From contig DBKT01000013.1 of assembly GCA_002297365.1 (NCBI GenBank), positions 1,601 through 65,600 on the forward strand: a DNA stretch of 64,000 nucleotides, read 5' to 3'. The notes below the pieces were generated by a model. It was not told the DNA's origin and made no database searches. It saw nothing but the letters and a program-made list of their open reading frames with translations. Each line of letters starts with the position of its first letter. Position 1 is the stretch's first letter. This DNA is from Bacillales bacterium UBA743. Lineage in GTDB: Bacteria; Bacillota_I; Bacilli_A; RFN20; CAG-826. Of this stretch, positions 2,089 to 49,416 are shown one piece after another. The translations under genes were made by a program, and so were the position numbers.

Positions 2089-3102
2089 TTATTTCGCTAA
2101 AGCAGGATACTTTGCTTGTTGAATTTCAGACCAGCTTTTAGCGGTGGCTAAACCAGAGATGATGCCACCAGCAGATTTAATGGTTGCAAGGCCTTCTTTG
2201 GTGGTCATGAAATCAACGAAAGCGTTGACAGCGATCTTTGTATTAGAGTCTTCTGGATAGTCTCCACGAATGACATAGTTAAAGTTACGGCTTAATTTAT
2301 AAGTTCCATCGTTAACTGTATCTTCAGAAGCGGCGACGCCCTCGAAAGTAAGCCCTTTGACATTTTCTGCATTAGAAAGCGAATCTAACGAGCAATAGCC
2401 GATGCCTTTAGGATCTGCTCCAATGGCATTCATCATATCGCCGTTGGTAGCTTGGCTAGATACCGTCAAGCCAGAAACCCACTTATCTTCGGCTTTAACA
2501 TCGCTATAGCCAATGCCCTCAAAGAAACATTCTCTGGTTCCAGATCCTGCTTCTCTTGAATAGAGTTTGACTGCTTCGCTAGCTAAGTTAGCATCAACAT
2601 CTTTCCAAGTCTTCTTTTCGCCTTTATACAAAGCAACCAAGGTCGCTTTGTCGGTAGCAGAATAGGCGTTTGCAGAATTCACGATTGGGACAACGGCGTC
2701 TTTGCAAATTCTTCCAGTCTTATTTGCTTCCGTAAGAGCGGTTTTTTCAGAGTCTTTAATTTCTCTAGATAAGAAACCAATATCATATTTGGTATTATTT
2801 TTTCCGGTGGTAACACCAGTAGTAGCGTCTCCACTACCATGTTGATCTTTCTTTAATGTAACTTTGTTGCCAGTTAAATCCGCAAATTTAGACCCAAGAT
2901 AGGTAATGACTTTGTCAACGGATGTAGAACCGCAAGATTTTAATTCGACAGCGGTAAATTCATTGTTTACGCTTTCATTGCTTTTTGAGGAGGATTCGTT
3001 TTGTTCTTGGCTTTTTGAGGAGGATTCGTTTTGTTCTTGTCCGCAGCTGAATAAGGTTAAGCTAGCAAGGGCAAGAATCATTGTTTTTAATGTTTTTTTC
3101 AT
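2089..3102 (-). CDS. pstS: Phosphate-binding lipoprotein PstS of the ABC transporter
   Basis: Lipoprotein signal peptide with a lipobox (LFSCG) and a PBP-like fold. It is the first gene of the pst operon. It contains an in-frame 30-bp tandem duplication in the N-terminal linker. Confidence 0.8.
   Translation of the reverse strand: MKKTLKTMILALASLTLFSCGQEQNESSSKSQEQNESSSKSNESVNNEFTAVELKSCGSTSVDKVITYLGSKFADLTGNKVTLKKDQHGSGDATTGVTTGKNNTKYDIGFLSREIKDSEKTALTEANKTGRICKDAVVPIVNSANAYSATDKATLVALYKGEKKTWKDVDANLASEAVKLYSREAGSGTRECFFEGIGYSDVKAEDKWVSGLTVSSQATNGDMMNAIGADPKGIGYCSLDSLSNAENVKGLTFEGVAASEDTVNDGTYKLSRNFNYVIRGDYPEDSNTKIAVNAFVDFMTTKEGLATIKSAGGIISGLATAKSWSEIQQAKYPALAK
2981..3040 (-). repeat. Perfect 2x30-bp in-frame tandem duplication inside pstS. 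It encodes SKSQEQNESS twice in the lipoprotein linker.
   Basis: The sequence gctttttgaggaggattcgttttgttcttg occurs twice, back to back. Confidence 0.9.
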
Positions 3103-3154
3103 ACTTTTTGCCTTTCAAACACCAACATTCTAAAAAGACGCGGCGAAACGTTAT

Positions 3155-3181
3155 ACCATATACTTGTAAAAGAATGTAAAG
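3155..3181 (-). promoter_or_regulatory. Candidate Pho boxes, about 55-80 nt upstream of pstS. These are three direct TTTACA repeats (on the minus strand) with a 10-11 bp periodicity.
   Basis: The plus strand reads TGTAAAagaaTGTAAAggaatTGTAAG, which is the complement of the TTTACA PhoP/PhoB-type half-sites. It lies between the divergent response regulator and the pst operon. Confidence 0.5.
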
Positions 3182-3271
3182 GAATTGTAAGGCTTTTCAA
3201 AAAGGGGGCAAAAAGCCTAAAAGAGCAAAAATAAAGGGATATAATGCAGTCGTTGTGATTTTGTTTGAACT

Positions 3272-3937
3272 ATGAACCAACCATTGATTTATTGCATAGA
3301 TGATGAAGAAAACATCCGTTCCTTATATGAAGACGCTCTAAGCGTTGGAGGCTTCCAGTGCGTTACTTTTCAAGATGGAGCCTCTTTCCTTGCAGAATTA
3401 AATAAGAAGCAGCCGGATTTGATTGTTTTGGATGTGATGCTGCCAGGAATGAGTGGCTTAGAAATCCTTGAGAATCTAACCCATGGTCCCTATTCCACCA
3501 TCCCCGTCATTATGGTTTCTGCAAAGGGCGGAGAAAGCGATGTGGTCAAAGGACTGAATCTCGGTGCATCCGATTATATCGCTAAGCCTTTTGGCGTAAT
3601 GGAATTGTTGGCTCGAATCAAAGCCAATCTTCGAAAGAACGGCTTTAGCAATACCATCACTTATAAAGAGCTGACGCTAAACAAACCGATGCACACCTTT
3701 TATTTAAATGGCGAACCTCTTTCTTTATCTTTAAAGGAATATGATCTTTTGGAATATCTTCTTAAGAACGCCGAAAAAATGGTTACCAAGGAAGAGCTTT
3801 TATCTAAAATATGGGGAATAAATTGCGAGATTGAAACACGAACCATTGATATGTTTATCTCTCGCGTAAGAAAGAAAATATCCTCCTCAAATATTCGAAT
3901 TGAAACCCTTAGAGGGGTTGGTTACATCCTCCGTTAA
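3272..3937 (+). CDS. OmpR-family response regulator (PhoP/PhoB-like), with a receiver domain and a winged-helix DNA-binding domain
   Basis: The receiver carries the acidic pocket (IDDEE), the phospho-acceptor Asp (LIVLDVMLPGMSG), a conserved Ser (VSAKG) and Lys (YIAKPF). A winged HTH is at the C-terminus (…RGVGYILR). No histidine kinase gene is adjacent. Confidence 0.85.
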   Translation: MNQPLIYCIDDEENIRSLYEDALSVGGFQCVTFQDGASFLAELNKKQPDLIVLDVMLPGMSGLEILENLTHGPYSTIPVIMVSAKGGESDVVKGLNLGASDYIAKPFGVMELLARIKANLRKNGFSNTITYKELTLNKPMHTFYLNGEPLSLSLKEYDLLEYLLKNAEKMVTKEELLSKIWGINCEIETRTIDMFISRVRKKISSSNIRIETLRGVGYILR

Positions 3938-6793
3938 TTATTTCAGATATATATCTAGCACGTGCTCCCCTGAGGCTTTTTCATCGAAATTGAAAATCAG
4001 GGTTTCTTTTCCATCTATTTTGAATTTATGGATATGGGTCGCATACTTTCCGATTTCTTTATGCAAATGAACGGAATATTTCGCCTGATATGTTGAATAG
4101 ACATAGGATAATTCTCCTACGCTTTTTTCAAGCAAAGGCAATATTTTCTTCTTATCGCTAAAAAAGGGGATCCCCACACTTTCTTTGATAGCCAATAAAA
4201 GCCATGTTGCCGTTCCGGAAAGAATTGGCCCTATGTCCTCTTTCGTAAACGGATTCGCATATTGGCAACAGAAACGCGGATTCCCTTTTTTGATATACGG
4301 GTCAAGTATGTCGCCATATGGATAGGTTTTCCTCATCATGAAAAAAGCATCATCTAGCATTTTTTCTCTTAAAGAATCCGAAGAAACGCGTTTCGCTCCA
4401 ACAAGAAGAGATTCCACGAACATCATGCCAGCATGTTTAAAAACGCCGCCATTTTCTCTATCGCCAGGGAAATAATGGCTTGTTGCGGAGTCTTTGCTTC
4501 CTAAAATGGTAAGATCCCCTTCTGTCGTTAAACGATACCCTACATCCGTTTTTAAATAGCGGTCTACGAGAGGCAGCATTTTAGCGATTTCTTCCTCATT
4601 GGCGATTCCAGAAAGAACGCTCCAAGAAAAGGAATTCAAATACAGGGTTCCGTTATTTAGTTCAGGATTTTCTGACAAACCATCTCCGAGGGACCCCACA
4701 TAAGAAGACTTCCCTCTATTTGAATTCAGCAGCACTCTTGCATAAAACCCATTAATCCATGCGTGCTTACGGATATTTCTTTCTAATCTCGTTTTTATTT
4801 CTTGATAAAAAAGCACCTCATTTTCCATAAGCGCATTTGTCTCCAAAAGAGAACGTATGCCAGCCAAAAGCAGAAAAGCATTCATAACCGATTCCGAATA
4901 GTCGCTAATGAAAGGGTCTCCATAATGAATAAAGCCCTTTTCGATCTGCTTTTTGTATTCCCTTTCTTTTTCGGGACCCGTTAAAGGAGACGAGTCAATC
5001 TTTAGACAATCGTTCCAATCTGCTCTATCAAGCAAAGGCAAGCCATGTTTCCCAATCGAGATGCACCCGGAATACATAACAATCGCTTTTAATGTATCTC
5101 TCAGCTTTCTTTTTGAATTTCCCTCGGCCACAGGAAATTCTTCCTCTAAGATATCAATATCGCTGCTCTCATGCATATATTCGCTTACCGCTAATAAAAG
5201 CCACAGAGAGTCGTCGCTGCATTGCCCCGCTTCTTTCCCTTCATAGTAGAAATTATGGTTAGCGTAACCAAAGGAATAGACGTTTCTTATCCAATTGGCC
5301 AAAAGATTCTTTGCCAAATCCTTTTGCCCATTGGCAAGAAAATAAGGGATAGACGCATATAGATCTTGAATTTCTCTGAATCCAATCTCACGATAGCCTT
5401 TTTGAGTTTGAGCGAAACTCCTGCTAACGAAGCTTTGATAAAGATTTTGGAATGGAAGGTTTCTGGAAGCTAAAGAATTGAATTCTTTGTCTTTCGAGGT
5501 GATGGCGAAAGAAGATGCGTATCTTTGAAAAGATCTTTCTCTTTCCAACAAAGCGTCCTTCATGGCGCCAATGTCTTTTTTGTCTTCCAGAAATCTCTTT
5601 AATTTGGATAAGAAATCCTTCTCATTTTCCAAATCCGCGAACCCCGTGTAACTATATAGATGTTTTTCTTTGTTTTTCTTCAAAGACACGTTTTTCTTTA
5701 AAGCAAAAAACGAAGCTCCTTTTTTCTTTAACGCGCTATCTAAATGATATATGCCTTGAGGATTTTCGATATTTCCATTGCCTAAGAAAGAGGCGGCATC
5801 GTTGCTGAAGGCGGTTGGAAATGAATCTCCATCTCGAAAGCCGAAAAATCTTCTTTTGCTTGAAAAATAATGCGGATAATAATGTGGCGAATAGGCTACT
5901 ATTTCTTCTTTTTCATTTCTAATGATGGAACTTTCTTGTATGACTGTTTGATAAATCACGTCATTTTCCATACAAGAAGGATTTGAGAAACCAAACATGC
6001 CTGTGAAACATATCTCTAGATTCCTATCTGTTGGAGAAAAGAGATTGACTATTTGTATTTCTAGCGCTTCAGGCTCTCCTTTTTTATAGGAGGGCAAGAA
6101 AAAGATTCTTTCAATTTGAAGGCCGTCTTTCAAAAGATAACGAATGGTTGTTTTATTGACGGAATGGACGCATTCGGCTTTTTCGACGTTTTGAGATATG
6201 CTGGCGCTATAGAAAATTATCTTCCCATCTTCAACCAGATAAAATTGCCTGTTGAACGGGTTGCCATTTTCCTCAGGAAGAATATCCCATCTCGTGGCCA
6301 ATATCTGATAACCGGCTGGGCCGCGAAAAGAGCCTCTTGCAAAGGAGTCGAGCACGCTTTTGGGGGTGCTTAACAAGCAATCGGAAACGTTTGTCCTGTC
6401 TCCTAAAAGAAGGTTCACGCCATAATGAGGCCCAACTTCGCCACTTTTTAAATCCAAATGAAGAGAGCCATCGTTGTCCAAATATCCACCATATGATTCT
6501 AATTTCTTCAAAGCCGAAAAAATAACGTCTTCTATTTCCTTGGAAATTCTTTTGCCTTGCAAGGAAACAACGCCATTTTCAATTTGAAATAAATATGTGT
6601 CTCCATCCAAATTTGAAACATAGTTAGCAAAAATCGGCTCGTTTCTTAAAAAAGATAACAAGGGGACGGAGCGGAAAGAACCTGCGAAACCAACATATTT
6701 ATGGGAGGAGGTAAGATATCCTTCATCTTTTAAAGAAGGAACGTCTTGAAAGGGCGATTGAAAATCCCTGGCATTGGTAAGCTTTAAAAACAT
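3938..6793 (-). CDS. GH94-family glycoside phosphorylase, 951 aa, similar to cellodextrin or laminaribiose/beta-glucan phosphorylases
   Basis: Its length and the conserved RADWNDCL catalytic-region motif are shared with the 807-aa GH94 paralog in this window. It is the last gene of the sugar ABC operon. Confidence 0.7.
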   Translation of the reverse strand: MFLKLTNARDFQSPFQDVPSLKDEGYLTSSHKYVGFAGSFRSVPLLSFLRNEPIFANYVSNLDGDTYLFQIENGVVSLQGKRISKEIEDVIFSALKKLESYGGYLDNDGSLHLDLKSGEVGPHYGVNLLLGDRTNVSDCLLSTPKSVLDSFARGSFRGPAGYQILATRWDILPEENGNPFNRQFYLVEDGKIIFYSASISQNVEKAECVHSVNKTTIRYLLKDGLQIERIFFLPSYKKGEPEALEIQIVNLFSPTDRNLEICFTGMFGFSNPSCMENDVIYQTVIQESSIIRNEKEEIVAYSPHYYPHYFSSKRRFFGFRDGDSFPTAFSNDAASFLGNGNIENPQGIYHLDSALKKKGASFFALKKNVSLKKNKEKHLYSYTGFADLENEKDFLSKLKRFLEDKKDIGAMKDALLERERSFQRYASSFAITSKDKEFNSLASRNLPFQNLYQSFVSRSFAQTQKGYREIGFREIQDLYASIPYFLANGQKDLAKNLLANWIRNVYSFGYANHNFYYEGKEAGQCSDDSLWLLLAVSEYMHESSDIDILEEEFPVAEGNSKRKLRDTLKAIVMYSGCISIGKHGLPLLDRADWNDCLKIDSSPLTGPEKEREYKKQIEKGFIHYGDPFISDYSESVMNAFLLLAGIRSLLETNALMENEVLFYQEIKTRLERNIRKHAWINGFYARVLLNSNRGKSSYVGSLGDGLSENPELNNGTLYLNSFSWSVLSGIANEEEIAKMLPLVDRYLKTDVGYRLTTEGDLTILGSKDSATSHYFPGDRENGGVFKHAGMMFVESLLVGAKRVSSDSLREKMLDDAFFMMRKTYPYGDILDPYIKKGNPRFCCQYANPFTKEDIGPILSGTATWLLLAIKESVGIPFFSDKKKILPLLEKSVGELSYVYSTYQAKYSVHLHKEIGKYATHIHKFKIDGKETLIFNFDEKASGEHVLDIYLK

Positions 6794-6798
6794 GCCAT

Positions 6799-7683
6799 CT
6801 ATCCCTTCACGCTGCCTTCAGTCGTTCCGGCAACAATAAATTTAGAGAGGAAAAGATAAACGATAACAAGAGGTATGATGGCAAAGCCAATCAAAGCATA
6901 TACCTTGCCCATATCAAAGGAAGAAGGATCCGAGGCCTTAACGGCAGCAATGATAAGCGGCAGCGTTTTCTTTTGGTTATCGCTGATTAAAAGAGCGGGG
7001 ATAAAGAAGTTATTCCAGTTGCTGACAAAAGCAAAAATAAGTTGAACAGCTAAAGCCGGTTTGATGATAGGCAAGGCCATTTGATTAAAGATGCGGAATT
7101 CCCCCGCCCCATCGATGCGGGCCGCTTCAATCATTTCTAACGGAAGAACGGATTCCATGTATTGTTTCATATAGAAAAAAGTGACGGGTGAAGCAATGGA
7201 AGGGATGATAAGTGGCCAAAGCATATCAGATTGGCCCATATTCGTAAGCATCCTCGCAAGGCCGACGCCGGATATGGTCGTTGGGATCATCATGATAACC
7301 AAAATGAACTTGAAGATGATTTCACGCCCTTTGAATTGATAAACCTCAATCGCATAAGCGGTCAAGGCGGAGAAATAAACGCAAAGCAACGACCCGAATA
7401 CGGAGACAACAACGCTGTTACCTAAAGCGGAAAGAACGGGCAAGTGATCATCAGAGAAAACATTTTTCATGTTCTCGAAGAAATTGTTGCCGAACCAAAA
7501 AGAGAAACTTGTGGCAATTTGGCCATTGTTCCGAGTCATGTTGACAAGCAATGTCCAAATGGGGAACAGACAAAGGAAGGTTAATATGATTAAAATGATA
7601 TAAACGCAAATTCTACGCGTTCTTAAGATAGCCGACATGCCCAAGAGGCTCTTTTTCTTACTCATGTTTTTGTTTTCTCTCAT
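6799..7683 (-). CDS. Carbohydrate ABC transporter permease (MalG-like)
   Basis: Six-TM permease with the EAA-like loop (…EAARIDGAGEFRIF…). The start is placed at the internal ATG, just after the upstream stop. Confidence 0.75.
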   Translation of the reverse strand: MRENKNMSKKKSLLGMSAILRTRRICVYIILIILTFLCLFPIWTLLVNMTRNNGQIATSFSFWFGNNFFENMKNVFSDDHLPVLSALGNSVVVSVFGSLLCVYFSALTAYAIEVYQFKGREIIFKFILVIMMIPTTISGVGLARMLTNMGQSDMLWPLIIPSIASPVTFFYMKQYMESVLPLEMIEAARIDGAGEFRIFNQMALPIIKPALAVQLIFAFVSNWNNFFIPALLISDNQKKTLPLIIAAVKASDPSSFDMGKVYALIGFAIIPLVIVYLFLSKFIVAGTTEGSVKG

Positions 7684-14360: not shown

Positions 14361-14669
14361 TTATTCAACAAAGAAAGTGTGTTTCGTAACCCACTTCTTC
14401 ATTTTGATTGTAACCCAAAGGCCATAAATGCCAAACGTAATAACGGTAAGCAAAAGCCATTTAATCCAATTTCCAAATAATTGTAAGGCATTCCCGTCAA
14501 AACGAAGTCTTTTTCCTTCAATCACCGTATGTTTTACTTCCCAGTTAACCAACATACATTTTGCCCAAGGAAAGCAAATTCCTAAGGTGCAAACGGTGAT
14601 AATCGTTCCAAGAATGCACCAACCGATTTGTTGCAAAAGGCCACCATCAAAATAAGATTCTTTTTCCAT
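14361..14669 (-). CDS. Small membrane protein, YjgN/DUF898-like
   Basis: The C-terminal segment FGNWIKWLLLTVITFGIYGLWVTIKMKKWVTKHTF resembles the DUF898 repeat. The start is placed at MEKESYF, downstream of a GAGGGGG RBS. Confidence 0.45.
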   Translation of the reverse strand: MEKESYFDGGLLQQIGWCILGTIITVCTLGICFPWAKCMLVNWEVKHTVIEGKRLRFDGNALQLFGNWIKWLLLTVITFGIYGLWVTIKMKKWVTKHTFFVE

Positions 14670-15003
14670 AATTTCCCCCTCACTTTTTATTAACGGCATC
14701 TTCATTATATAAAAAGCGTTCCTATTCGCAATAACTAAAAAACAACAGCACCTATCGTTCCATAGGAATATACAAAAAATCTGGCACATTTTGTATCAAA
14801 CCTATGCTTTTATTATGCGTCCGGTTGCCTATTTTAAAACGATTTGCGTACATCTCTTGCAAAGTGCATACGGTTGAAAAGAAAAAACCTGGCTCCGTAA
14901 CTTTTAATGGGGATGGCAAAATCGCCATCCCCATCCATCCCCATAAATCCAACCCCATAAAAAGTTAGAAAGCCCAGAATTTTGGGGGACGTTTCATACA
15001 CAT

Positions 15004-15101
15004 TGATGGAGTCGAGGGGAATTGAACCCCTGTCCGAAGAATCTCCCGCAAGGACCTCTACAGTTTAGGTCCTATCATGATTTGACCAATTGGCACGATA
15101 A
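15004..15101 (-). repeat. A 98-bp degenerate copy of the tmRNA 3' end. It is the att-like direct repeat (remnant) of the ssrA integration.
   Basis: It is about 93% identical to 16444-16541. The CCA end has decayed (tgatgg here versus tggtgg in the intact gene). Confidence 0.85.
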
Positions 15102-15121
15102 AACGAAAGCGTTACCAAACA

Positions 15122-15340
15122 TTAACACAATTTTTCGTATTCCCAGCTTTTATAAAGGACAAGGGCAAAAGGCATGCTGTTCGGCGTTTCAATCAAGATC
15201 GAACCGTCTTCATATATTTCACACACCAGTCCAATGGTTTCTTTTGGGACATGTATCGACTCATTGCCATAAAACGTGTCCTTATCAATCAAGGTTTTGA
15301 TGCTGCTTCCCATCTTTATTCCCATTTTTTGTCTCCTCAT
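15122..15340 (-). CDS. Hypothetical 72-aa protein, second gene of the islet operon
   Basis: An ATGA start/stop overlap with the upstream 172-aa ORF. It ends exactly at the repeat boundary. Confidence 0.4.
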   Translation of the reverse strand: MRRQKMGIKMGSSIKTLIDKDTFYGNESIHVPKETIGLVCEIYEDGSILIETPNSMPFALVLYKSWEYEKLC

Positions 15341-15855
15341 GGTATTAAAGTTAGTAGTCTAACTCGTCCATCTTTCTGTATTTGCCAAGCCGTGGTAACA
15401 ACGCAATTGTTAAGGGTTGTTTTTGCTTCCGCATTAAATGTGTATTGATTTATGGATTTGAAAGAAAGGGTGCAAAAATCGGTATTAAATTTTATATCAT
15501 TGATCAATTTTTGCTCATTGCTTTCGGAATAACCTAATTTTTTTAGAAAAACACTTTTATCTCTCCCAATTTGTTTTGTCAAAAGATACGTAATTTTGGA
15601 AGGTTCAATTAGCGCATCTTCGCTTTTAAGAAATTTTCTAAAATATTTTACAAACATTTCGCAATATTCTGCTTCATGAATTCTATAGTCGGGAAAATGT
15701 ATCTTTAAATCAAGATCATCCATTCCAAACACATATATTAGAACGAGATTCCGCATGTCCCTTTCTTTCAAATCCAACAAAGAAGCTTTTCTGTATCGGC
15801 CGTCATTTGGATCGTAAGTTTGTAAATGGTCGCCTCCACCAATTTTTAAATTCAT
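15337..15855 (-). CDS. Hypothetical 172-aa protein of the islet
   Basis: A long ORF that is translationally coupled to the 72-aa ORF. No recognisable motif. Confidence 0.45.
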   Translation of the reverse strand: MNLKIGGGDHLQTYDPNDGRYRKASLLDLKERDMRNLVLIYVFGMDDLDLKIHFPDYRIHEAEYCEMFVKYFRKFLKSEDALIEPSKITYLLTKQIGRDKSVFLKKLGYSESNEQKLINDIKFNTDFCTLSFKSINQYTFNAEAKTTLNNCVVTTAWQIQKDGRVRLLTLIP

Positions 15856-15947
15856 GCTTTTCTCCTTTGTTATTGGACTATTTAATTGTCATTGAAATTA
15901 CTCTTTTCTTCAATTATATTTTATTCGTTAAACTTTTATTTAGTTTT

Positions 15948-16382
15948 ATGATTAAAAATTGGAATCTCCGTTTGAAAGAAAAAAGGTTACAAGCGAGTCT
16001 AACGCTAAGCCAAGTAAGCGAAATGAACAGCAAACATCTATCTCAGCAATCCCTTATCAAATACGAAAAAGGGCAAATCTGCCCACAAATTGATACTCTA
16101 GAAGAGCTATGCCAAATCTATAAAACAGACATTAATTATATTATGTATGGTTCGGAGAATCTAAATATCGCAATCAACAAAAGCGATATGTTAATTACCA
16201 TTTGGTATCTGATGGTCTCAAATCAAATTGAGCTCATTGGCGATACTTTGGCTATCAAAAACGAAAGCCTAAAAAAACAGATTTTTTGCTTAAATGTATT
16301 TGTTGAAGAAAAAGGTATTTCATCCATGAAAGACCTATACAGCTTAATAGCGGGGATCAAAAACATGAAGCAGGATGTGTAA
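15948..16382 (+). CDS. XRE-family (Cro/CI-type) HTH transcriptional regulator
   Basis: HTH segment LRLKEKRLQASLTLSQVSEMNSKHLSQQSLIKYEKG. The start is placed at MIKNWNL, because the longer ORF would overlap the convergent gene. Confidence 0.55.
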   Translation: MIKNWNLRLKEKRLQASLTLSQVSEMNSKHLSQQSLIKYEKGQICPQIDTLEELCQIYKTDINYIMYGSENLNIAINKSDMLITIWYLMVSNQIELIGDTLAIKNESLKKQIFCLNVFVEEKGISSMKDLYSLIAGIKNMKQDV

Positions 16383-16443
16383 TAAAGCATCGTGAATTTA
16401 CATCCCGATACGAAAAGCCCTGTTGAAGTAATTAAAATACACA

Positions 16444-16843
16444 TTGGTGGAGTCGAGGGGAATTGAACCCCTGTCCGAAGAATCTCCCACAAGGACCTCT
16501 ACAGTTTAGGTCCTATCATGATTTAACTAACTGGTACGATAAGGCCAAGTCCAATTAGCGAGGCTAAGAGGGTTTTCGTCGCCTTTCCCTAGCCAAGGAT
16601 TGGCGCTTATCACCTTATTTAGCGCCCTGACCGTTAGTAAGGTGCGAAACTAACGGAGGACGTGCTCCTCCTAGACGATGCTAGGAAACCCGTAGGTTAC
16701 TGATTAAGCGGCAGCATACGAAACGCGTTGAGCGCGGTTCGCATAGATATAACTGTTGTCAGTTATTGTTTTTCGATGTTAAAGCTCATCACGCTACTGC
16801 AGTCCAGGCAAGATCGGTTCCCCGTCAAAACCAGAACGACCCC
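16444..16843 (-). ncRNA. ssrA: tmRNA (ssrA)
   Basis: The minus-strand 5' end reads GGGGTCGTTCTGGTTTTGACGGGG. The 3' tRNA-like end reads …GGGGTTCAATTCCCCTCGACTCCACCA. An internal ORF resumes at GCG and ends …TATGCTGCCGCTTAA. The predicted tag, approximately ANRAQRVSYAAA, is a low-confidence call. Confidence 0.85.
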
Positions 16844-37398: not shown

Positions 37399-38379
37399 TT
37401 AGTTCCCTTTTCTTATTCCTTTTTCTATTTGATGCGAGTTTCCGAGAATTTCTAATGCGTTTTCTTTAATTGCTTCCTTCAGCCAATAAGGTTCAAGTAC
37501 TTTGCAATCTCTTCCAAAGCCAAGAATAAAAGAAACGATATTTTCTCTAAAATGCATGGTCACTTCAAATACTGTGCTTCCATCTGGCAAATCTTCAACA
37601 ATTTGTTCCTTCCCATAGCAATAGTCCTTAGCGCGAACAGCGGAACGACCATAAAGCTGAAATTTGATTCTATACCATTCATCAGTTTTAATTTTAGTCA
37701 AACCGTATTTATTAAAGAAATCTCTAGGGTTAAAGAACGTATCGTAAACAAACTTTCTACCCGTTGAGGCATAATTTGAAATTCTACACAATTTAAAATA
37801 GCGATAATCTTTTGCAAGCTCGCAATAACCAATTAAATACCAAGATCCGCCCCAGGAAAAAAGATACATGGGTTGAACGTTTCTTTCTCTTATGACATTA
37901 TCATTGGATAGAAAAGACATTCTGATTACCTCACGTTTTGAAATCGCTTCTTGAAAAAACAAATAACGTTTATTGATTTCTTCCTTGGATAAAGCTGAAG
38001 GAAAATGGTCAATAAAAACGAATTCTTCTGAATCGTTTGAATGAATTATCGAGGATAATATTTTTCCCATCGCAAGTTCATATTCTTTTTGATGTGGGAA
38101 TATATTCTGGGGGCGATTCATCTGATAGGCTTCCATTAAAGCATCTTTTTCCTTTTCCGTTAGAAGAATGCTTGGAAAAATGCTGGTATTTTCTAATTTA
38201 TATCCGCCATATCTACCCGGAATGGAGACAATGCTATATCCTGAATCTTCGATTTCCTTTTTGTATTCCAAAATATTTCTAGGATTTGTCTCGAGAAGAT
38301 TCGCTAATTCTGAAATTTTATAGATGTTTCCTGTATTTAATATTTGAAGCATTTTGATGCAAGACGAAGTTTTACTCAT
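37399..38379 (-). CDS. HTH-WYL domain transcriptional regulator (YafY/BrxR-like)
   Basis: An N-terminal HTH_11-like segment (CIKMLQILNTG…ISELANLLETNPRNILEYKKEIE) and a C-terminal WYL-type region (…FSWGGSWYLIGYCE…). Confidence 0.7.
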   Translation of the reverse strand: MSKTSSCIKMLQILNTGNIYKISELANLLETNPRNILEYKKEIEDSGYSIVSIPGRYGGYKLENTSIFPSILLTEKEKDALMEAYQMNRPQNIFPHQKEYELAMGKILSSIIHSNDSEEFVFIDHFPSALSKEEINKRYLFFQEAISKREVIRMSFLSNDNVIRERNVQPMYLFSWGGSWYLIGYCELAKDYRYFKLCRISNYASTGRKFVYDTFFNPRDFFNKYGLTKIKTDEWYRIKFQLYGRSAVRAKDYCYGKEQIVEDLPDGSTVFEVTMHFRENIVSFILGFGRDCKVLEPYWLKEAIKENALEILGNSHQIEKGIRKGN

Positions 38380-38390
38380 ATCCGTTTTCT

Positions 38391-38891
38391 CTATAGTTTT
38401 TCATTCCATCGTGCCTGTCCATTGGATTGATAAAACGTTATAAATAAATGTTCTATAGTTTCTTTATAATACCATGGCGTTACTTCAATTACCTTGTAAT
38501 AGATCTTTTTCTTGTTTTGTCGCTTTCCCAAATAATCATAAACATTCTTTATTTGCGAATTGGTGCTTGAGGGTTTCCCATATTTCTCCCCCTCAAAATT
38601 GTCGTTTTTGACTAAGTGCTGCGTTAATCTTAAATGGACATTATTAGCCGTACCAACATATAAAACGTTATTTTGTTCGTCTCCTATAAGATAAAGATAA
38701 GCGGTTGTGAGGTTTCCGGCATCTTCGTCTTTTTCAAAAGACAAAATTTCATCAAGGCAGTCCAAGGAATAGATGCCCGTTTTAGGATCAAAGGATGGAT
38801 TACCATATCTAAGTTCTATCCAAGGGGCCTTTCTAATTTTATTCTCATAATGTAGTCTTAGCAAAAATGAGATTAATTTCATGATTGTCAT
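38391..38891 (-). CDS. GIY-YIG nuclease-domain protein
   Basis: It has the canonical motif YLYLIGDEQNNVLYVGTANNVHLRLTQH. It lies immediately upstream of the WYL regulator, within 12 bp of it. The start codon is uncertain (alternatives at 38924 TTG and 38882). Confidence 0.65.
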   Translation of the reverse strand: MTIMKLISFLLRLHYENKIRKAPWIELRYGNPSFDPKTGIYSLDCLDEILSFEKDEDAGNLTTAYLYLIGDEQNNVLYVGTANNVHLRLTQHLVKNDNFEGEKYGKPSSTNSQIKNVYDYLGKRQNKKKIYYKVIEVTPWYYKETIEHLFITFYQSNGQARWNEKL

Positions 38892-39713: not shown

Positions 39714-41039
39714 TTAATTTTTATTTTCAAATACGTCATGTATTTCCTTAGATGAGAGAGATGTTTTCTCAAGCAATCTTGCGGCTAATTTCTCGATTTT
39801 TTCTTTTCCTTCTTCAAGAATTTCTACAGCTCTCTTTGACAACCCTTCTATAATTTCTGTTCCTTTAGCCTGTCTTTCATCCATTATTGTCATACTAAAC
39901 GGTCCACTGTATTCGGGATTCTCAAGAACGATATAATCAAAACCATAGAAGCCTTCATTGAGCATCGCTGAGATCGTTTTTTTCGCTTTTTCAAAGTCGT
40001 CTTGATTGCCCCCAAAGCATTTTCCCGTCATGACCTTTACGGATAAGAAACCAGCTAAGGCTATCATGCAGGTTTCTTCTCCACTTTTAAGTGTGAAAGA
40101 TTCTTGTCCTGTAGATACTGTTTCAGTGGAACCACTTGATTCCCCTTGTTGAAGAAGAGAAACGCTTCCAAGCTTTTCTGGGATAAGGCGGTAAATCATA
40201 TAAGCATGCCCCGCTTCATGATAAGCGGTTAGCTTTTGTTCTTCTTTTGAGCAAGCGGATTCTCTTGGCAAATCCTTAAAGGCAACACGCCGAATCGCAT
40301 ATGTGAAGTCTTGAATAGAAAGAGATTGTTCTCGTTTGGAAACAGCTTGAATGATGACTTCGTTAACAACGCATTCTATATCCGCCCCAGAGAATCCGCT
40401 TGTCATTTTTGCGATTTCATCAACGCTTACTCCCAAAGGCAGGTCCGTTTTTTCCAAGAAGTGTTCAATGATCAATTTTCTTTCTAAATCATTGGGAAGG
40501 GGAAACACAATCTGCCTATCAAACCTTCCGGAACGGCTTAACGCATCTCCTAAATATTTTCTTTCATTGCAAGTTGCAATCACGATGACGCCTTCTTTAG
40601 AGCTGATTTTGTCCAACTCATGTAGAAGAATCTTCTGGTTTTTAAGATTTTCCGTTATTTCGTAAGCATACTTACGGTAGCCTGCAATTTTCTCAATCTC
40701 ATCAATAAATAAAATGGCGCGATCGTTTTCATGTGCCCTTTTGAAGCCGTGATAGATGTCTTCTTCTACGCTCAATTTCCTTTCGATGGCATCTGAAACG
40801 CTAATTTCAATAAGAGGAATATCCAAATACTCCGCAATATCCATCACCAGGCGAGATTTGCCAGTGCCTGGCTGCCCATAAAAGAGCCAGCCTTTTGGAT
40901 AATGGGCTCCTCTTTCGAGATAAAGTTTCTCATTTTGGAATAAATCCACGATTTGAGCCGCTTCTTCCCTTATTTCCCTATATCCAGCGATATGAGGAAA
41001 CATTTTTTGTAATGTAGTTTCGTTAATTTTTTCAGTCAT
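39714..41039 (-). CDS. FtsH-like AAA+ ATPase/M41 zinc metalloprotease that lacks the transmembrane and periplasmic regions
   Basis: Walker A (GQPGTGKSRL), Walker B (ILFIDEIE), the SRH (…LSRSGRFDRQI…) and HEAGH (TAYHEAGHAYMIY). The protein starts only about 50 aa before the Walker A, so it has no N-terminal TM hairpin. Confidence 0.75.
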   Translation of the reverse strand: MTEKINETTLQKMFPHIAGYREIREEAAQIVDLFQNEKLYLERGAHYPKGWLFYGQPGTGKSRLVMDIAEYLDIPLIEISVSDAIERKLSVEEDIYHGFKRAHENDRAILFIDEIEKIAGYRKYAYEITENLKNQKILLHELDKISSKEGVIVIATCNERKYLGDALSRSGRFDRQIVFPLPNDLERKLIIEHFLEKTDLPLGVSVDEIAKMTSGFSGADIECVVNEVIIQAVSKREQSLSIQDFTYAIRRVAFKDLPRESACSKEEQKLTAYHEAGHAYMIYRLIPEKLGSVSLLQQGESSGSTETVSTGQESFTLKSGEETCMIALAGFLSVKVMTGKCFGGNQDDFEKAKKTISAMLNEGFYGFDYIVLENPEYSGPFSMTIMDERQAKGTEIIEGLSKRAVEILEEGKEKIEKLAARLLEKTSLSSKEIHDVFENKN

Positions 41040-41641: not shown

Positions 41642-42148
41642 CTAAATATCGTTATCATCGAATCCGGCTAGTTTTGTACTAGAATCTAGATTTTGGGAAT
41701 CTATATATTTAGCGTTTTTGAAACGAAAGATCGTTTTTAAAATAACGTTCGGAAATTCATTGATGTATTGATTGTAATCATTCACCAACTTATTAAGTTC
41801 TAATTGAGAATTTTGGTAAGCATCTGCTAAAGAGAGAACGAGATTTCCTGCTAAGGTAAAATGCGAAGATATCTTTCCTGTCGCCCCTCCAATCAACCTT
41901 CCTCCTTGATAAGAAGAATTAGCCACCTTATAAGCGTTCCCTTGCGAAGAATCCGCATCTATGGTTGCAGTTCCTGTCTTTCTCAAAACTTGAAGGTATT
42001 TTGCTTTTGCAATACGCACATTGCTTTGGGCATCACGAATATTTTCTCTTTTGCGGATCACCATATTTCGAAAGCCAATAATCCATCCGATTAACCAGCA
42101 AAAAGCTATAAAACCTAATGCCAATAACATCCATCCCCACCATCTCAT
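41642..42148 (-). CDS. LemA-family protein
   Basis: An N-terminal TM, then …FRNMVIRKRENIRDAQSNVRIAKAKY…, and a C-terminal FPNVILKTIFRFKNAKYI. This matches the LemA pattern. Confidence 0.65.
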   Translation of the reverse strand: MRWWGWMLLALGFIAFCWLIGWIIGFRNMVIRKRENIRDAQSNVRIAKAKYLQVLRKTGTATIDADSSQGNAYKVANSSYQGGRLIGGATGKISSHFTLAGNLVLSLADAYQNSQLELNKLVNDYNQYINEFPNVILKTIFRFKNAKYIDSQNLDSSTKLAGFDDNDI

Positions 42149-43701
42149 AAATTTGATTCCTTGTATTTCAATACATTTATTGCATTTTTTACCTTTTCTA
42201 GATTCACTTTGTGCTTAAACTCGTTCTTCTCTCTATCTGTAAAAACGCATCCATCCTCAATGAGCTTGTTCATGTATTCCCCCGCTTTAGGGAAGCCAAT
42301 AGAACAATGTCTTTGAATGTCGCTTATACCAACTGTTGGCATATTCTCACAATAGAGTAATACTGTAAGATAAGTCACGTCATTTGAATTAGAAACAGGA
42401 GCATTGCCACTTTTTACTTCACCATTTGGAACGAAAGTGTCTGTTTTCGGAGACTCTTTTTTCTTAGCCTTTAATTCAGTGAAGGCGCCCTCCGGCTTCT
42501 TAGAACAGCGCTCGGGATTGATATAGCCTTCTTCGCAAAGACGGTTGAATAAACGACCAGCAACCGGAAAGCCGATGGAATATTTCCTTTGAATAGTACT
42601 GATGCTAATGAATTCATCGTTTTCACAATCTTGGATCAATTCCTGATAAATGATATCCGTTGATTTTTGCTGAGTTTGATTTGAGTTTGTAAGCCCTTCG
42701 GCGTTTTTATTCGTCTGCTCTGGTTTAAGCTCTTTATTCGCCATCTCTGGTTTAAACTTTCTGTTGGATTTCAGAATCTTTCTTCCAATCGTCATTAATT
42801 TATCCCGGAGGATTTGAGGAGAAAGCACTTCGCATTCTCCCTGAAAGTCGAGAATAGCCCTAAGTGTTCCTTCTAAATCCTCTGTATCAAATTTCAAAAT
42901 GACAGAACCATCATCTAAAACCCTTTCCGATTGATTTGCCCCAAGCTCTCTTTTCCCAATGTAAGGGCATAAAGAGGACAAATGAAGTTCTACGTGATAT
43001 ACCTTTTCTTTAAGAAAGTTGAAATCCGTGTTATCAACGTAATCTTCATTGAAAAAATAATCTTTTGAAAAACCGATACCAGAAGTTTTGTATTCTTGAA
43101 TGTTATTTAATTTGATGCATTGATATTTCTTTTGGATTCGTGAATAGCAAAGAAGAAAAAGACTACCATCATCCATAATGAGTTTGTACGGTTCAACATC
43201 GTTTTCGATTGCTTTATGAATCGTGACCACGTAGACAATATGTGCTACAAGCCTCTTTTCAATGCATTTAACAAAGAAATCGTATCGTTCCTTTAACTCT
43301 TTGGTGGATAAAGCAAAACGACTACGGTCCGTTATTTTAACTTTGGGGGTTTCCTTTCCATCCCAACGGATAGCAGAGAAAATTTTGTTCATCGCCTTTT
43401 CAAAATCATCCCGGCAATAGATGGTTCCTTCATTGCTCACATACGAAGAAGCAAAAGCGAGAGAATCTCTTTCTTCCTTTGTAAAGCAAAGGGAGGGGAG
43501 CAAAACGGACTTCTTTAAACAAATCCCGCCATACCTTCCCGATGTAGATTCAAATTCATATCCACATTCTTGAAGTTCTTTCCTATATTCTGAGATGTTT
43601 CTTTCTTTAAAGCCCAAGGTGTTTGCCAATTCGGAGTTTTTATATTTCTTTCCCCCAGCGAGGGCTTGTAGCATCTTGATGCAATTTGCTGTTTTTCCCA
43701 T
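42145..43701 (-). CDS. HTH-WYL regulator fused to two C-terminal FtsK-gamma-like winged-helix domains
   Basis: The N-terminus CIKMLQALAGGKKYKNSELANTLGFKERNISEYRKEL is homologous to the other WYL regulators. The C-terminus carries SISTIQRKYSIGFPVAGRLFNRLCEEGYI and GISDIQRHCSIGFPKAGEYMNKLIEDGCV, which fit the FtsK gamma pattern S.S..QR…IGY.RA.R…LE..G.V. Confidence 0.65.
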   Translation of the reverse strand: MGKTANCIKMLQALAGGKKYKNSELANTLGFKERNISEYRKELQECGYEFESTSGRYGGICLKKSVLLPSLCFTKEERDSLAFASSYVSNEGTIYCRDDFEKAMNKIFSAIRWDGKETPKVKITDRSRFALSTKELKERYDFFVKCIEKRLVAHIVYVVTIHKAIENDVEPYKLIMDDGSLFLLCYSRIQKKYQCIKLNNIQEYKTSGIGFSKDYFFNEDYVDNTDFNFLKEKVYHVELHLSSLCPYIGKRELGANQSERVLDDGSVILKFDTEDLEGTLRAILDFQGECEVLSPQILRDKLMTIGRKILKSNRKFKPEMANKELKPEQTNKNAEGLTNSNQTQQKSTDIIYQELIQDCENDEFISISTIQRKYSIGFPVAGRLFNRLCEEGYINPERCSKKPEGAFTELKAKKKESPKTDTFVPNGEVKSGNAPVSNSNDVTYLTVLLYCENMPTVGISDIQRHCSIGFPKAGEYMNKLIEDGCVFTDREKNEFKHKVNLEKVKNAINVLKYKESNL

Positions 43702-47141: not shown

Positions 47142-47936
47142 TTAAGAATCATCTTTCCAAAGAAGGCCCAAAGAAACATCGTCTCCGATTCCGATTTCTG
47201 TGCCCAATTTGAATACGAAGTCGACTATTTTTTCTTTTTTGCCCTTTTTTAGACTCTCTAAAATAGGTCTTACGCAAGAGGTGCAAAAATTATCAAAAGT
47301 TCTATACGGGTTTATGAAACCATCCGTAAAAACCATGGCTCCATCCACTTCCGAAATAGAAAGGATTTTAAGCCTTATATGTTGATAAGCGTCCGCTTGG
47401 CACATCGAGTACGTGATGTTTGCCACATTATCTTCCTCCTCCTGGAAGATTCTTTCGGCCGTGCCGTTCTTTAAAAGGAAGCAACCACCATCTCCTAAAG
47501 AAACACAAATCAACCTTTTTCCCAAGATCATTGCCCCATTTAAGGTAGTTCCGTATGCGATTTGAGGATCTTGAAGAATTAAAGTTCTTTCATCTTCATC
47601 TAGAATGGAGAGTTCTTTATCGGTGAAGGGGCGCTTAGAAATGTCTTCTTCGACAAGTCCATTCCATTTGCAGAGAATCGCAAGACGGATACGATTTTCC
47701 GCTCGGCTTTCGTTGAGTAAACGTTCCTCGTTTGTTTTCTTAAATACATATAGGATTGCATCGGAGGCAAATTTTGAGCCCCTGTCACTGCGAATATAGA
47801 GCTTTCCTCCATGGCCATCGCAAGAAGTAACAATGGTTCTTGTTTCATCATGATAAGAATCAGAATAGTCCTGACATATAATTCCGTTTTTTATATGAGA
47901 GTAACCAATAGATGTTGTTGTTAAATATTGAACCAT
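47142..47936 (-). CDS. PP2C-family Ser/Thr protein phosphatase
   Basis: N-terminal …GYSHIKNGIICQDYS…TSCDGHGG and C-terminal …MVFTDGF…. Confidence 0.7.
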   Translation of the reverse strand: MVQYLTTTSIGYSHIKNGIICQDYSDSYHDETRTIVTSCDGHGGKLYIRSDRGSKFASDAILYVFKKTNEERLLNESRAENRIRLAILCKWNGLVEEDISKRPFTDKELSILDEDERTLILQDPQIAYGTTLNGAMILGKRLICVSLGDGGCFLLKNGTAERIFQEEEDNVANITYSMCQADAYQHIRLKILSISEVDGAMVFTDGFINPYRTFDNFCTSCVRPILESLKKGKKEKIVDFVFKLGTEIGIGDDVSLGLLWKDDS

Positions 47937-47939
47937 AAG

Positions 47940-48671
47940 TTACCACTCCCAATCGTCTACTTCAGCAATCGCTTGTTGCACTAAACCCTTTATCTCTTCC
48001 GTTTGAGATGGTTTCTTTCCTTTTACTGATGAAGAACTCGATTTCACCTTGGAGGCTGTTATCACTATGATTTTGATGATTCGATTGAGCAAACGTGCGT
48101 CATAACATTCAATTACATCTCCGTTTCCCGAAACAAAATCGTTCAAGCAACGAATGGTTTTCTCATCATTTGATCCAACCGATATACCATATTTCAAAGC
48201 AATTTTGAACCATGGAAGTTTTTGCAAAGAAGACAATTCTGTTTTGATAGCTCCGTTACTAGGATGGCCATCGCTCATCAAGAGAATGATGGGAGCCAAT
48301 CCGCCAAAATCTGGCATGATTCCGCCTTGAGATTCTTTTTTTAAGATTTCGGAAAGAAACTTATAGGCAAGATGGATATTGCTTCGCCCTGCAGCCTTAA
48401 TGCCTTGAAAGCCAAATTTTTTCACTGGCAAGCATTTCTCGTCTTTATAAAACGAAGCTTGGGTGGAATATGTAATCAAGGTAATATAGAAATCAACATT
48501 GGTGTTTTCATCTTCCATCTTCGAAAGATAATCTTTAATTTCAAAAATGGCATCATTTACTTGTTCAATACGGGTACCCCGCATGCTTGAAGAAGTGTCC
48601 ACAAGCAAAATGATATTAAGTCTTTGCTTGGCGATGTTTCCTACAAAGACGTTACCAGTCTGTGTCGACAT
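47940..48671 (-). CDS. vWA-domain protein (TerY-like)
   Basis: MIDAS motif (LLVDTSSSM) and a …LMSDGHP… segment. The C-terminus is acidic (DDWEW). Confidence 0.7.
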   Translation of the reverse strand: MSTQTGNVFVGNIAKQRLNIILLVDTSSSMRGTRIEQVNDAIFEIKDYLSKMEDENTNVDFYITLITYSTQASFYKDEKCLPVKKFGFQGIKAAGRSNIHLAYKFLSEILKKESQGGIMPDFGGLAPIILLMSDGHPSNGAIKTELSSLQKLPWFKIALKYGISVGSNDEKTIRCLNDFVSGNGDVIECYDARLLNRIIKIIVITASKVKSSSSSVKGKKPSQTEEIKGLVQQAIAEVDDWEW

Positions 48672-49416
48672 CGTTCACTTCCTCTAAGTTATTGGCAATC
48701 TCTTTCTGAGCAACATCGTTATTATTAACAAGTCCGTTGCCATTTGAAGAGTTATCTCCGCTATTTGCATCGTTATAAGTTTTACTAGAGGAATTTGATT
48801 TAACTTTAGAGGCCGTTACCGCAATAACTTTGATTACTTTTCTTAAGGCTTCCGCTGTGTAAACCTTTAAAACGGTTTCACGGTTTCCCGTGAATTTAAC
48901 CAAGACGTCCATAGCTTCGTCGGTGTCAACGCCGATAGCAAGAGCGTATTTCAAGGCAACCTTGAACCAACCTTTTTTCTTTAATTCAGCAAGGCAATCT
49001 TCCCAATCAAAAGAAGTTGGATTTCCATCAGTCATTAAGATGATAATTGGGGCAACTCCGCCAATATCAGGCATTTGTCCACCATTACTCTTTTTCCTAA
49101 GCCATTTAGCTAATTCGTCATATGCAGCAGAAAGATTGGTTGCACCATCTATCGAAAGATCGTTCCATTTAAAATCCTCCACATTCTTTGGCTCAGAATA
49201 AATCCATTTAGCAGTATCGCTAAAAGCTAATGCAGAAATTTTAATCGTAGCATCGCTAGTATCCTCTTGAATCTCAGGCATGATACTCACAACGTCTCTG
49301 ATTGCATTATTGACTGCGCCAATCCTCTCCCCCTCCATGGAAGCGGAATTGTCAATCACAAACAGCAAGTTCAATTCTTGCCTTGCAACTCCATCACCTA
49401 AAACTACTTCAGACAT
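48652..49416 (-). CDS. vWA-domain protein (TerY-like). It is a paralog of the previous gene.
   Basis: MIDAS motif (FVIDNSASM) and …LMTDGNP…. The C-terminus is acidic (DVDTDW). Confidence 0.7.
   Translation of the reverse strand: MSEVVLGDGVARQELNLLFVIDNSASMEGERIGAVNNAIRDVVSIMPEIQEDTSDATIKISALAFSDTAKWIYSEPKNVEDFKWNDLSIDGATNLSAAYDELAKWLRKKSNGGQMPDIGGVAPIIILMTDGNPTSFDWEDCLAELKKKGWFKVALKYALAIGVDTDEAMDVLVKFTGNRETVLKVYTAEALRKVIKVIAVTASKVKSNSSSKTYNDANSGDNSSNGNGLVNNNDVAQKEIANNLEEVNDVDTDW

Follow-up and report, generated by a model that had tools for sequence, protein, structure and literature searches.

How did the last part of a transfer-messenger RNA (tmRNA) gene come to stand twice, some 1.3 kb apart, on one bacterial contig, and what do the genes between the two copies do? 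The question is raised by a 64-kb stretch (64,000 nt) of contig DBKT01000013.1 from Bacillales bacterium UBA743, an uncultured gut bacterium, called the window here, in which the 3′ end of the tmRNA gene ssrA recurs on the far side of three small genes. We consider it probable that the feature is a small, horizontally acquired islet at the tmRNA 3′ end that lacks a recombinase and carries an intracellular module of XRE-family regulator, toxin, and immunity gene, similar in kind to cis-mobilizable elements (CIMEs). Feature coordinates are collected in Table 1.

The duplicated ssrA 3′ end and its insertion site

ARAGORN detects one tmRNA gene in the window, with the tag peptide DNSYIYANRAQRVSYAAA (closing in ...SYAAA*) and a 3′ end of CCACCA. 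The gene matches the Rfam model RF00023 over its full length (positions 1 to 374; 136.1 bits, E = 8e-54; gathering score, 47), so that a full-length score above gathering, a tag frame, and a tRNA-like 3′ end with CCA are all in place. Across 9 assemblies of the species, just 2 sites in its 399 nt are polymorphic. A single long direct repeat was found, linking the end of this gene to a second copy (106 nt; 94% identity; copies spaced 1,441 nt apart with 1,335 to 1,343 nt in between); its 40-nt core occurs exactly twice in the window and never in 100 shuffles. Base-by-base comparison in tmRNA-sense orientation revealed 6 mismatches. Four are transitions packed into 11 nt at the repeat's 5′ edge (repeat positions 8 to 18), one at position 54 is particular to the window strain, and the sixth changes CCACCA to CCATCA, turning the encoded terminal CCA into TCA. 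Identity continues for 8 nt (ATGTGTAT) past the gene's CCA. These data bear out the original prediction that the last 98 nt of ssrA are duplicated with about six substitutions and loss of the CCA. The spacing of about 1.3 kb given there also held, but the gene ends at 16445 rather than 16444 and the repeat is 8 nt longer than was claimed.

The two copies differ in status. The 5′ part of the proximal copy is that of the native ssrA in a relative whose site is empty (L026, described below). The distal copy begins 20 nt past the immunity gene's stop codon, on the same strand, and gives only a partial Rfam match, as a tmRNA fragment at 27 bits. With 4 polymorphic sites in 106 nt among the 9 assemblies, it has the highest polymorphism density of the region; such relaxed constraint would suit a fragment without function. 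At position 54 both copies vary among strains: ssrA has T (16489) and the distal copy C (15048) in the window, the two bases are exchanged in L036 and L039, and T stands in both copies of the remaining strains. This toggling between copies among strains suggests occasional gene conversion, or else a mutational hotspot.

The same arrangement was recovered independently. We located assemblies of the species through the exact toxin protein and the exact DUF898 flank protein in public contigs (records labeled "Firmicutes/Bacillota bacterium," with a sister species labeled "uncultured Mollicutes bacterium UMGS237") and compared 9. The distal copy is covered in 8 assemblies besides the window (L002, L003, L005, L006, and L036 to L039), drawn from JGI, ENA, and Logan and including contigs of 105 to 245 kb, and there it carries its own copy-specific substitutions. 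An NCBI contig (L004) stops inside the distal copy, and several short-read (Logan) assemblies break precisely at the repeat, which could speak for mis-assembly. Nevertheless, the arrangement recurs with copy-specific substitutions in 8 assemblies of differing samples and assemblers, and a related species (L007) has its own version of the duplication. Therefore, the duplication is not an artefact of assembly, an explanation to which we assign a negligible chance.

Scanning species-representative genomes for the ssrA 3′ end returned 8 loci, and these define the site. In L026 (90.5% identity to the window in the neighboring 366-aa membrane protein), ssrA is followed by 106 nt and the DUF898 gene, which is an empty site. 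In L019 (90.8% identity to the window and 98.8% to L026 in the same protein), a 4.3-kb island follows ssrA. In L016 (82.2% identity), a lone homologue of the small immunity protein, a DUF3990/HTH pair, and then DUF898 occupy the site. DUF898 therefore lies directly after ssrA in L026 and after unrelated islands in L019 and L016. The native flank AAAGAAAAG stands directly after the CCA in L026, L020, L023, and L025. By alignment with L026 and L019, the native flank of the window, AATAAAAGCATAGGTTTGATAC, restarts only at about 14815 (AA(G/T)AAAAGCAT(A/G)GGTTTGATAC). Relative to the L026 empty site, the insertion thus spans 14816 to 16444, about 1.63 kb, exactly at the end of ssrA. It consists of the 1.34-kb three-gene cassette, the distal ssrA copy (a 98-nt copy within the 106-nt repeat), and about 180 nt of unrelated DNA. 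The window and L019 islands both meet the native flank about 2 nt or less from the CCA that ends ssrA, and the islet has a GC content of 31 to 34%, versus 39 to 44% in its flanks. A direct repeat at the far boundary, an empty site in relatives, and atypical base composition are what is found for islands targeted to tRNA or tmRNA genes. The empty site in L026, the different cargo in L019 and L016, and the low GC together support the conclusion that ssrA is an integration hotspot here and that the duplication of its 3′ end marks DNA acquired horizontally. The earlier proposal of foreign DNA at the ssrA 3′ end is thereby upheld, the comparison of related loci having yielded both an empty site and a larger island.

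The proposed clean attL/attR pair did not survive this comparison. The distal repeat does not abut the native flank, as a simple attR would: the same non-native 8 nt follow both copies, and the unrelated DNA of about 180 nt intervenes before the native flank. This DNA has no similarity to any fetched locus by blastn or tblastx. We considered it as a second tandem unit homologous to the XRE-proximal flank, by comparison with L007, and rejected this because the alignment was unconvincing and blastn and tblastx returned nothing. Just past the distal copy, the sequence from 14900 to 15040 contains three GGGGWTGG motifs and a 9-bp hairpin.

Other occupants of the site deserve mention in their own right. 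The L019 island (3101 to 7390 of that locus, exactly at the ssrA end) encodes a membrane-anchored ThsB_TIR protein (3130 to 4374) and two large secreted proteins, and it has no long ssrA repeat. In L016 (8001 to 9795), the immunity gene is preceded by the residual last codons of the toxin gene (GGDKKWK*), and the downstream pair of DUF3990 (232 aa) and HTH_3 (217 aa) proteins is possibly a second toxin-antidote cassette. The tmRNA of L025 (4477 to 4872) belongs to a different lineage (tag DKTVKPWMIGSSNRVLARA), yet over the last 65 nt it shares about 98% identity with the ssrA 3′ end of the window clade. Its 3′ flank is near-identical to that of L023, with IS66-family genes downstream; either a mobile element supplied this 3′ end or the contig is chimeric.

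A cassette of regulator, predicted toxin, and predicted immunity genes

Homology and structure searches of the two proteins encoded on the minus strand pointed to a DUF6883/BECR-Tox3 domain in the larger and an SH3-like fold with weak DUF4926 likeness in the smaller. Judged from these sequences and models, the cargo would be a toxin and its antidote under an XRE regulator, in agreement with the earlier suggestion of a toxin-antitoxin (TA)-type pair. The toxin has 179 aa in other strains and species. In the window, a GGA-to-TGA change (codon 15337 to 15339, base 15339) strips the C-terminal GGDKKWK. The exact 172-aa protein is found on 19 contigs, versus 5 for full-length forms, and also occurs in L036 to L039; it is a genuine allele and common in the species. 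An alternative code (TGA = Trp), which might have explained a deposited 179-aa protein, was ruled out since other strains have a real GGA codon. The original description of a coupled operon of 172 and 72 aa was therefore accurate as to the open reading frames (ORFs) but described a mutant allele: the ATG of the "ATGA-coupled" 72-aa ORF was itself created by the toxin's GGA-to-TGA change, and the ancestral genes encode 179 and 67 aa and overlap by 10 nt.

The toxin has two parts. Residues 1 to 77 are conserved in full-length members (motif GGGxHxQxY...GxY, then FP, H60, and Y64-C65), have no assigned function, and showed no detectable relatives. Residues 78 to 172 comprise the predicted DUF6883/BECR-Tox3 RNase-fold domain. 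A word-indexed search for the 179-aa toxin found 6 clusters and a full hidden Markov model (HMM) search found 89 representatives, many of which cover merely residues 78 to 179 or so. Pfam DUF6883 was matched by 42 of 64 toxin family members (best E = 3.9e-20); one other match was to PBECR4, and one member is fused to a phage minor-capsid/MuF-type domain. An AlphaFold2 model built from the family alignment (predicted local distance difference test [pLDDT] of 92) has a colicin-D-like BECR fold. In the HMM alignment, the family motif R-x-x-T-L-x-P lies over HRFITTIP of the Kp342 toxin, placing R166 and T169 on Kp342 R252 and T255; no equivalents were established for Kp342 K157, Y160, and H170. 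The most conserved positions among the 64 members are K100 (62/64), W157 (62/64), T169 (57/64), and R166 (R or K in 48/64), and the nonsense allele retains all four, losing only the terminal helix.

The likely activity is suggested by known relatives. The C-terminal toxin of CdiA (CdiA-CT) from Kp342 cleaves uncharged tRNA-Ile with R252 and T255 as active-site residues (PMC9086364), and the closest structural relatives of the islet toxin cut tRNA acceptor stems. Independently, a 2026 preprint equates DUF6883 with BECR-Tox3, which is commonly accompanied by a downstream DUF4926 gene and often fused to Phage_Mu_F (bioRxiv 10.64898/2026.08.28.747851). By analogy, the toxin's C-terminal domain, with its colicin-D/CdiA-CT-type RNase fold, most likely acts as a tRNase that arrests translation. 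The protein has no recognizable secretion or delivery domain, suggesting action within its own cell.

The small partner gene always accompanies the toxin gene and overlaps it, by 10 nt in other strains, and is preceded by a GGAGGAG Shine-Dalgarno sequence. Its product is modeled as an SH3/KOW-like barrel (pLDDT of 95), and we infer that this 67-aa protein would bind and neutralize the toxin. The window allele carries G61W, at a nearly invariant Gly, as well as E2G. Orphan immunity genes outnumber toxins (41 versus 6 clusters in the word-index search) and occur beside tmRNA (L016), beside tRNA-Lys (L013, with no direct repeats of the tRNA-Lys end around the gene), and elsewhere (L032). The toxin gene is frameshifted in L010 and L034, N-terminally truncated in L030 and L031, and interrupted by the nonsense codon in the window, and the immunity gene is intact each time. 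Set side by side, the empty, occupied, and decayed sites of sister species show how such modules are acquired, duplicated, and worn down, the toxin going first and the immunity gene last.

The XRE gene converges on ssrA and diverges from the toxin gene. Its product combines the N-terminal HTH_3 domain with an uncharacterized C-terminal domain of about 75 aa. It is intact in the window strain and frameshifted in L002 to L004 by a 1-nt deletion in an A-run around 16271 (16266 to 16277; 7 A in the window, 6 A in L002 to L004). The frameshift removes the C-terminal domain in strains whose toxin stays full length. Among the cassette proteins, only the XRE helix-turn-helix (HTH) domain matched defense-system regulators in PADLOC, and only XRE matched PHROG phage families. 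A full-length XRE homologue stands divergently beside the toxin gene in 7 contexts, and the block between the two genes, with TTTAAC...TATAAT, is kept in 7 cassettes whose proteins are just 38 to 80% identical. A sigma-70-like site at 15892 to 15920 (+) is directed towards the XRE gene. This conservation points to a divergent promoter/operator between the genes, which the XRE repressor would control.

By tblastn against all fetched loci, 7 independent contexts (the window, L007, L009, L010, L027, L028, and L029) hold the reverse-oriented XRE gene, toxin gene, and immunity gene in one common order and orientation, with protein identities among contexts as low as 38 to 43% or so. Two species have the cassette at tmRNA and a third has it at tRNA-Ala. 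In this third species (L010), it directly follows tRNA-Ala(cgc) and its toxin gene carries the frameshift. It ends in a repeat (TTAGGTCCACCAAAA / TTAGGTTCACCAAAA; 14 of 15 nt identical; spacing, 1,777 nt) that sits in a degenerate copy, about 27 nt long, of the stretch from T-loop to 3′ end, oriented as in the window. The sequence TCCACCAAAA is common to the native ssrA end and the L010 tRNA-Ala end. At the same ssrA locus in L007, the cassette proteins are 65 to 80% identical to those of the window and the repeat extends to 279 nt (99% identity), 174 nt of which is the XRE 3′ region and not ssrA; the distal part is a tandem second unit that was later truncated. The L027 cassette is flanked by a duplication of about 440 to 470 nt, and L029, which is 96.7% identical to L027 over 3.2 kb, is without it. 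Dispersed repeats of 115 to 170 nt lie between gene cassettes in L027 (5000 to 19700) and L029 (1100 to 3200), separating Fic, DUF4417, XRE-toxin-immunity, and AAA_14 ATPase cassettes; neither these repeats nor the L027 duplication had a match in Rfam or PLSDB.

Between the window species and L007, the ratio of nonsynonymous to synonymous divergence (dN/dS) amounts to 0.13 in the toxin gene and 0.23 in the immunity gene, indicating that both have been under purifying selection. Synonymous divergence (dS) of toxin and immunity genes is 0.86, compared with 1.3 to 2.9 for flanking core genes (dN/dS, 0.03 to 0.07); the cassette is either old or has been exchanged between lineages. Between L007 and L016, the immunity gene's dS exceeds that of core genes, which suggests separate acquisitions.

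Table 1. Features of the islet and its surroundings, followed by other genes noted in the window
Feature	Coordinates	Strand	Basis or remark
DUF898 membrane protein gene	14361..14669	(-)	Pfam DUF898; conserved right flank of the hotspot, outside the islet
Extra DNA, about 180 nt, between distal copy and native flank	14816..14995		Part of the insertion relative to the L026 empty site
Distal repeat copy; non-functional ssrA 3′-end fragment, CCA to TCA	14996..15101	(-)	Repeat search
Predicted immunity (antidote) gene, 67 aa, SH3/KOW-like beta-barrel	15122..15325	(-)	Conserved ORF; model
Predicted toxin gene, truncated 172-aa allele	15337..15855	(-)	ORF; ancestral 179-aa ORF reaches 15316
Putative divergent promoter/operator region between XRE and toxin genes	15856..15947		Conservation; sigma-70-like site
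XRE-family regulator, 144 aa	15948..16382	(+)	Pfam HTH_3, E 9e-8; PHROG transcriptional repressor families
Proximal repeat copy; last 98 nt of ssrA plus 8 nt downstream (ATGTGTAT)	16437..16542	(-)	Repeat search
ssrA (tmRNA), intact	16445..16843	(-)	ARAGORN; Rfam RF00023
WYL+WCX regulators	37399-38379, 42145-43701		Pfam
GIY-YIG nuclease	38391-38891		Pfam
FtsH-like AAA+M41 protease	39714-41039		Pfam
Ser/Thr-kinase-like protein	47142-50705		By eye only
STAND-like ATPase	51225-52295		Pfam

Proposed origin and action of the islet

Because the cassette recurs alone at two tRNA-like genes without phage or conjugation genes, we read it as a complete, non-autonomous, CIME-like element and no prophage stump. 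The original prediction held that the integrase and the bulk of an element were gone; instead, the same three genes recur as a unit in 7 contexts with no phage or island genes attached. The islet's three small genes include no recombinase, no integrase lies beside the att site, and integration and transfer genes are absent, as in CIMEs. Both repeat copies are present, the distal one with 5 or 6 substitutions, the CCA among them, and polymorphic. A recombinase stands beside the cassette in only 1 of the 7 contexts (L029). No phage structural, replication, or lysis genes were found, and there were no matches in INPHARED or IMG/VR: the toxin and immunity proteins had no relatives in IMG/VR, and the toxin had none in INPHARED (tblastn) or PLSDB. 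A BFVD fold search gave one marginal match. The module also departs from classical type II TA systems in that the toxin gene comes first, the antidote has no HTH or ribbon-helix-helix domain, and the XRE gene is separate.

The following mechanism would fit these observations, its functional steps being read from sequences and models. The cassette may have arrived by recombination inside a copy of the tRNA-like 3′ end that the element itself carried, a recombinase acting in trans, or may have accreted beside an earlier insertion, as CIMEs do. Once in place, the XRE repressor would control the divergent promoter of the module. The BECR-fold RNase toxin, probably a tRNase, would arrest translation, and the translationally coupled 67-aa SH3-like protein would bind and neutralize it. 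The module would act inside the cell that encodes it, as a toxin-antidote system of the addiction or abortive-infection type, and may stabilize itself at the recombination hotspot. The immunity gene could also protect against related toxins, such as those fused to MuF in phages.

Two alternative origins were weighed against a non-autonomous element. The 1.3 kb could be the leftover of a prophage or large island at ssrA after deletion of the integrase and most genes, which we regard as a distinctly less likely possibility. Beyond the distal ssrA copy of L007 stands another, truncated XRE 3′ end, a tandem unit deleted down; about 180 nt of orphan DNA follows the window's distal copy; deletions are visible inside the L016 cassette; and the L029 cassette lies near restriction-modification-like genes and a recombinase. 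What speaks against a remnant is that the three-gene unit is bounded at two tRNA-like genes and is found in five further contexts, never attached to a phage or conjugation gene, that its toxin and immunity proteins were absent from the virus and plasmid collections searched as described above, and that only its XRE protein matches phage protein families. Alternatively, no site-specific recombination was involved and the repeat arose by homologous recombination (a Campbell-type circle with an ssrA-like segment, unequal crossing-over, or tandem duplication). Repeat length indeed varies beyond that of normal att sites (106 nt in the window, 279 nt in L007, about 470 nt in L027), both window copies share the 8 nt past the gene, and position 54 toggles between copies as in gene conversion. 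Yet two independent islands, those of the window and L019, have their native-flank junction no more than about 2 nt from the ssrA CCA, and the L010 cassette is bounded by just 15 to 27 nt or so of tRNA 3′ end, both hallmarks of site-specific targeting. In addition, the mismatches gather at the repeat's 5′ edge, as in element-borne att arms. We consider a purely homologous origin unlikely.

Two further proposals concern the tRNA-like DNA itself. The distal fragment and the G-rich 180 nt could form a functional RNA: a permuted gene resembling tmRNA, a tRNA-like element of the 3′ untranslated region, or an RNA serving as decoy or antitoxin against a toxin that cleaves acceptor stems. The fragment lies so close to the immunity stop codon, on the same strand, that it is probably co-transcribed; Rfam tmRNA_permuted gives a sub-threshold match (28.3 bits, E = 0.014); in this match, CGACUCC of the fragment could base-pair with a GGGGUUG further downstream, one of the pairs being G3-U70; and the toxin's closest structural relatives cut acceptor stems. 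However, the score is under the gathering threshold and derives mostly from the genuine tmRNA fragment, and a 7-nt complement in 180 nt is expected about 0.2 times by chance (an estimate), so that the pairing is probably fortuitous. The fragment also combines the region's highest polymorphism density with a mutated CCA, and the 180 nt have no homologue in other cassettes. A functional RNA thus appears very improbable. Scarcely more credible is a bolder idea, that the cassette belongs to a distinct family of miniature non-autonomous elements homing to the acceptor-end DNA of tRNA-Ala-like genes (tmRNA and tRNA-Ala; shared core, TCCACCAAAA), with the site functionally linked to the cargo. Either the toxin would target the acceptor stem of tRNA-Ala or tmRNA, with the co-transcribed tRNA-like fragment modulating it, or an uncharacterized domain, either the first 77 aa of the toxin or the C-terminal part of XRE, would aid integration of the cassette.

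Several observations weigh against our preferred reading of a recombinase-less islet carrying an intracellular toxin-immunity module. In L029, a large serine recombinase lies about 0.7 kb past the immunity gene, so larger elements do carry some copies of the cassette. The recombinase search, which covered the 64 kb of the window and returned none, was crude, using regex motif scans and Pfam searches of 10 ORFs that lacked annotation. Nor is the anatomy accounted for by a single attB x attP event: given the same non-native 8 nt after both copies and a distal copy off the native flank, at least two events are required, or tandem accretion and then deletion, for which L007 is an example. The long L007 and L027 repeats exceed att sites and point to homologous recombination, which clearly contributes. 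Within the species the islet is fixed, with no empty site among the 22 contigs read and no sign of current mobility. The commonest toxin allele is the truncated one. As for the protein families, the window toxin scores 22.6 to 23.1 bits against DUF6883 (PF21814), under the Pfam cut-off of 27, and the DUF4926 link is weak, with 9 of 42 small-protein homologues matching at E values of 0.021 to 1.

The islet is decaying piecemeal, with the toxin nonsense codon and G61W in the window strain and the XRE frameshift in others. Taken together, the finding is real and the original prediction was right in outline, but it is not exceptional. It documents a three-gene toxin-immunity cassette at tRNA and tmRNA hotspots without its own recombinase. 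Such islets usually go unannotated, as did all three genes in the deposited metagenome-assembled genome. The predicted toxin is a tractable, free-standing candidate member of the newly defined BECR-Tox3/DUF6883 family, accompanied by an allelic series of full-length and truncated toxin, G61W immunity protein, and frameshifted repressor. Its practical value lies mainly in annotation and as a model pair for substrate specificity; it opens no new system category.

Elsewhere in the window, the stretch from 32500 to 54100 resembles a conflict or defense island. Besides the genes in Table 1, inspection by eye only picked out three AAA_14/DUF4143-type ATPases, two vWA-like proteins, and a PP2C-like protein there.

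Comparison with known systems

Earlier work has described islands at ssrA, att-flanked islets without an integrase, and the pairing of DUF6883 with DUF4926. New here are the three-gene cassette family, the unannotated toxin N-terminal domain, the recurrence at tmRNA and tRNA-Ala, and the natural allelic series. By definition, CIMEs have lost integration and transfer genes and retain attL and attR (PMC6323972). Dehalococcoides harbors tandem ssrA islands, some of which were proposed to be CIMEs (PMC3146451). Like these elements, the islet is foreign DNA at the ssrA 3′ end bounded by a direct repeat of that end, is without integration or transfer genes, and, in L007, shows evidence of tandem units. 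Unlike them, it is far smaller (1.3 to 1.6 kb, three genes), has a repeat of 98 to 106 nt rather than 20 nt, has a mutated distal repeat that stands off the native flank, and is fixed in the species. Its CIME likeness is read from sequence, and no cognate integrative and conjugative element, integrative and mobilizable element, or integrase was identified.

Compared with BECR-Tox3/DUF6883 toxins and the Kp342 and EC3006 tRNases (PDB 6CP9 and 6CP8), the toxin's C-terminal domain probably falls in the DUF6883 sequence family, retains the R..T pair aligned to R252 and T255 of Kp342, and, as in BECR-Tox3, is followed by a small, weakly DUF4926-like gene. In contrast to BECR-Tox3 and CdiA toxins, the islet toxin is free-standing, with no Phage_Mu_F or CdiA fusion, and adds a conserved 77-aa N-terminal domain and an ever-present, dedicated XRE regulator in the cassette. 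The CdiI immunity proteins of Kp342 and EC3006 have folds that differ from the SH3-like immunity protein. As in orphan toxin-immunity modules of contact-dependent inhibition (CDI), Rhs, and MuF systems, immunity genes outnumber toxins, and toxins are often truncated or frameshifted beside intact immunity genes. Unlike those systems, the islet has no full-length delivery protein upstream and no pre-toxin repeat shared for recombinational swapping, and its neighborhood contains no secretion system.

Three-component TA systems with a separate regulator exist, such as paaR2-paaA2-parE2 of Escherichia coli O157:H7. That system resembles the islet in having a small toxin of RelE/ParE-colicin (BECR) fold, a small antidote that does not bind DNA, a separate HTH regulator, and a location on horizontally acquired DNA. 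It differs in that its regulator lies within the operon and its antitoxin is intrinsically disordered, and its genes have no sequence relationship to those of the islet. In the islet, the toxin gene precedes the antidote gene, the regulator is transcribed divergently, and the predicted antidote is an SH3-like barrel.

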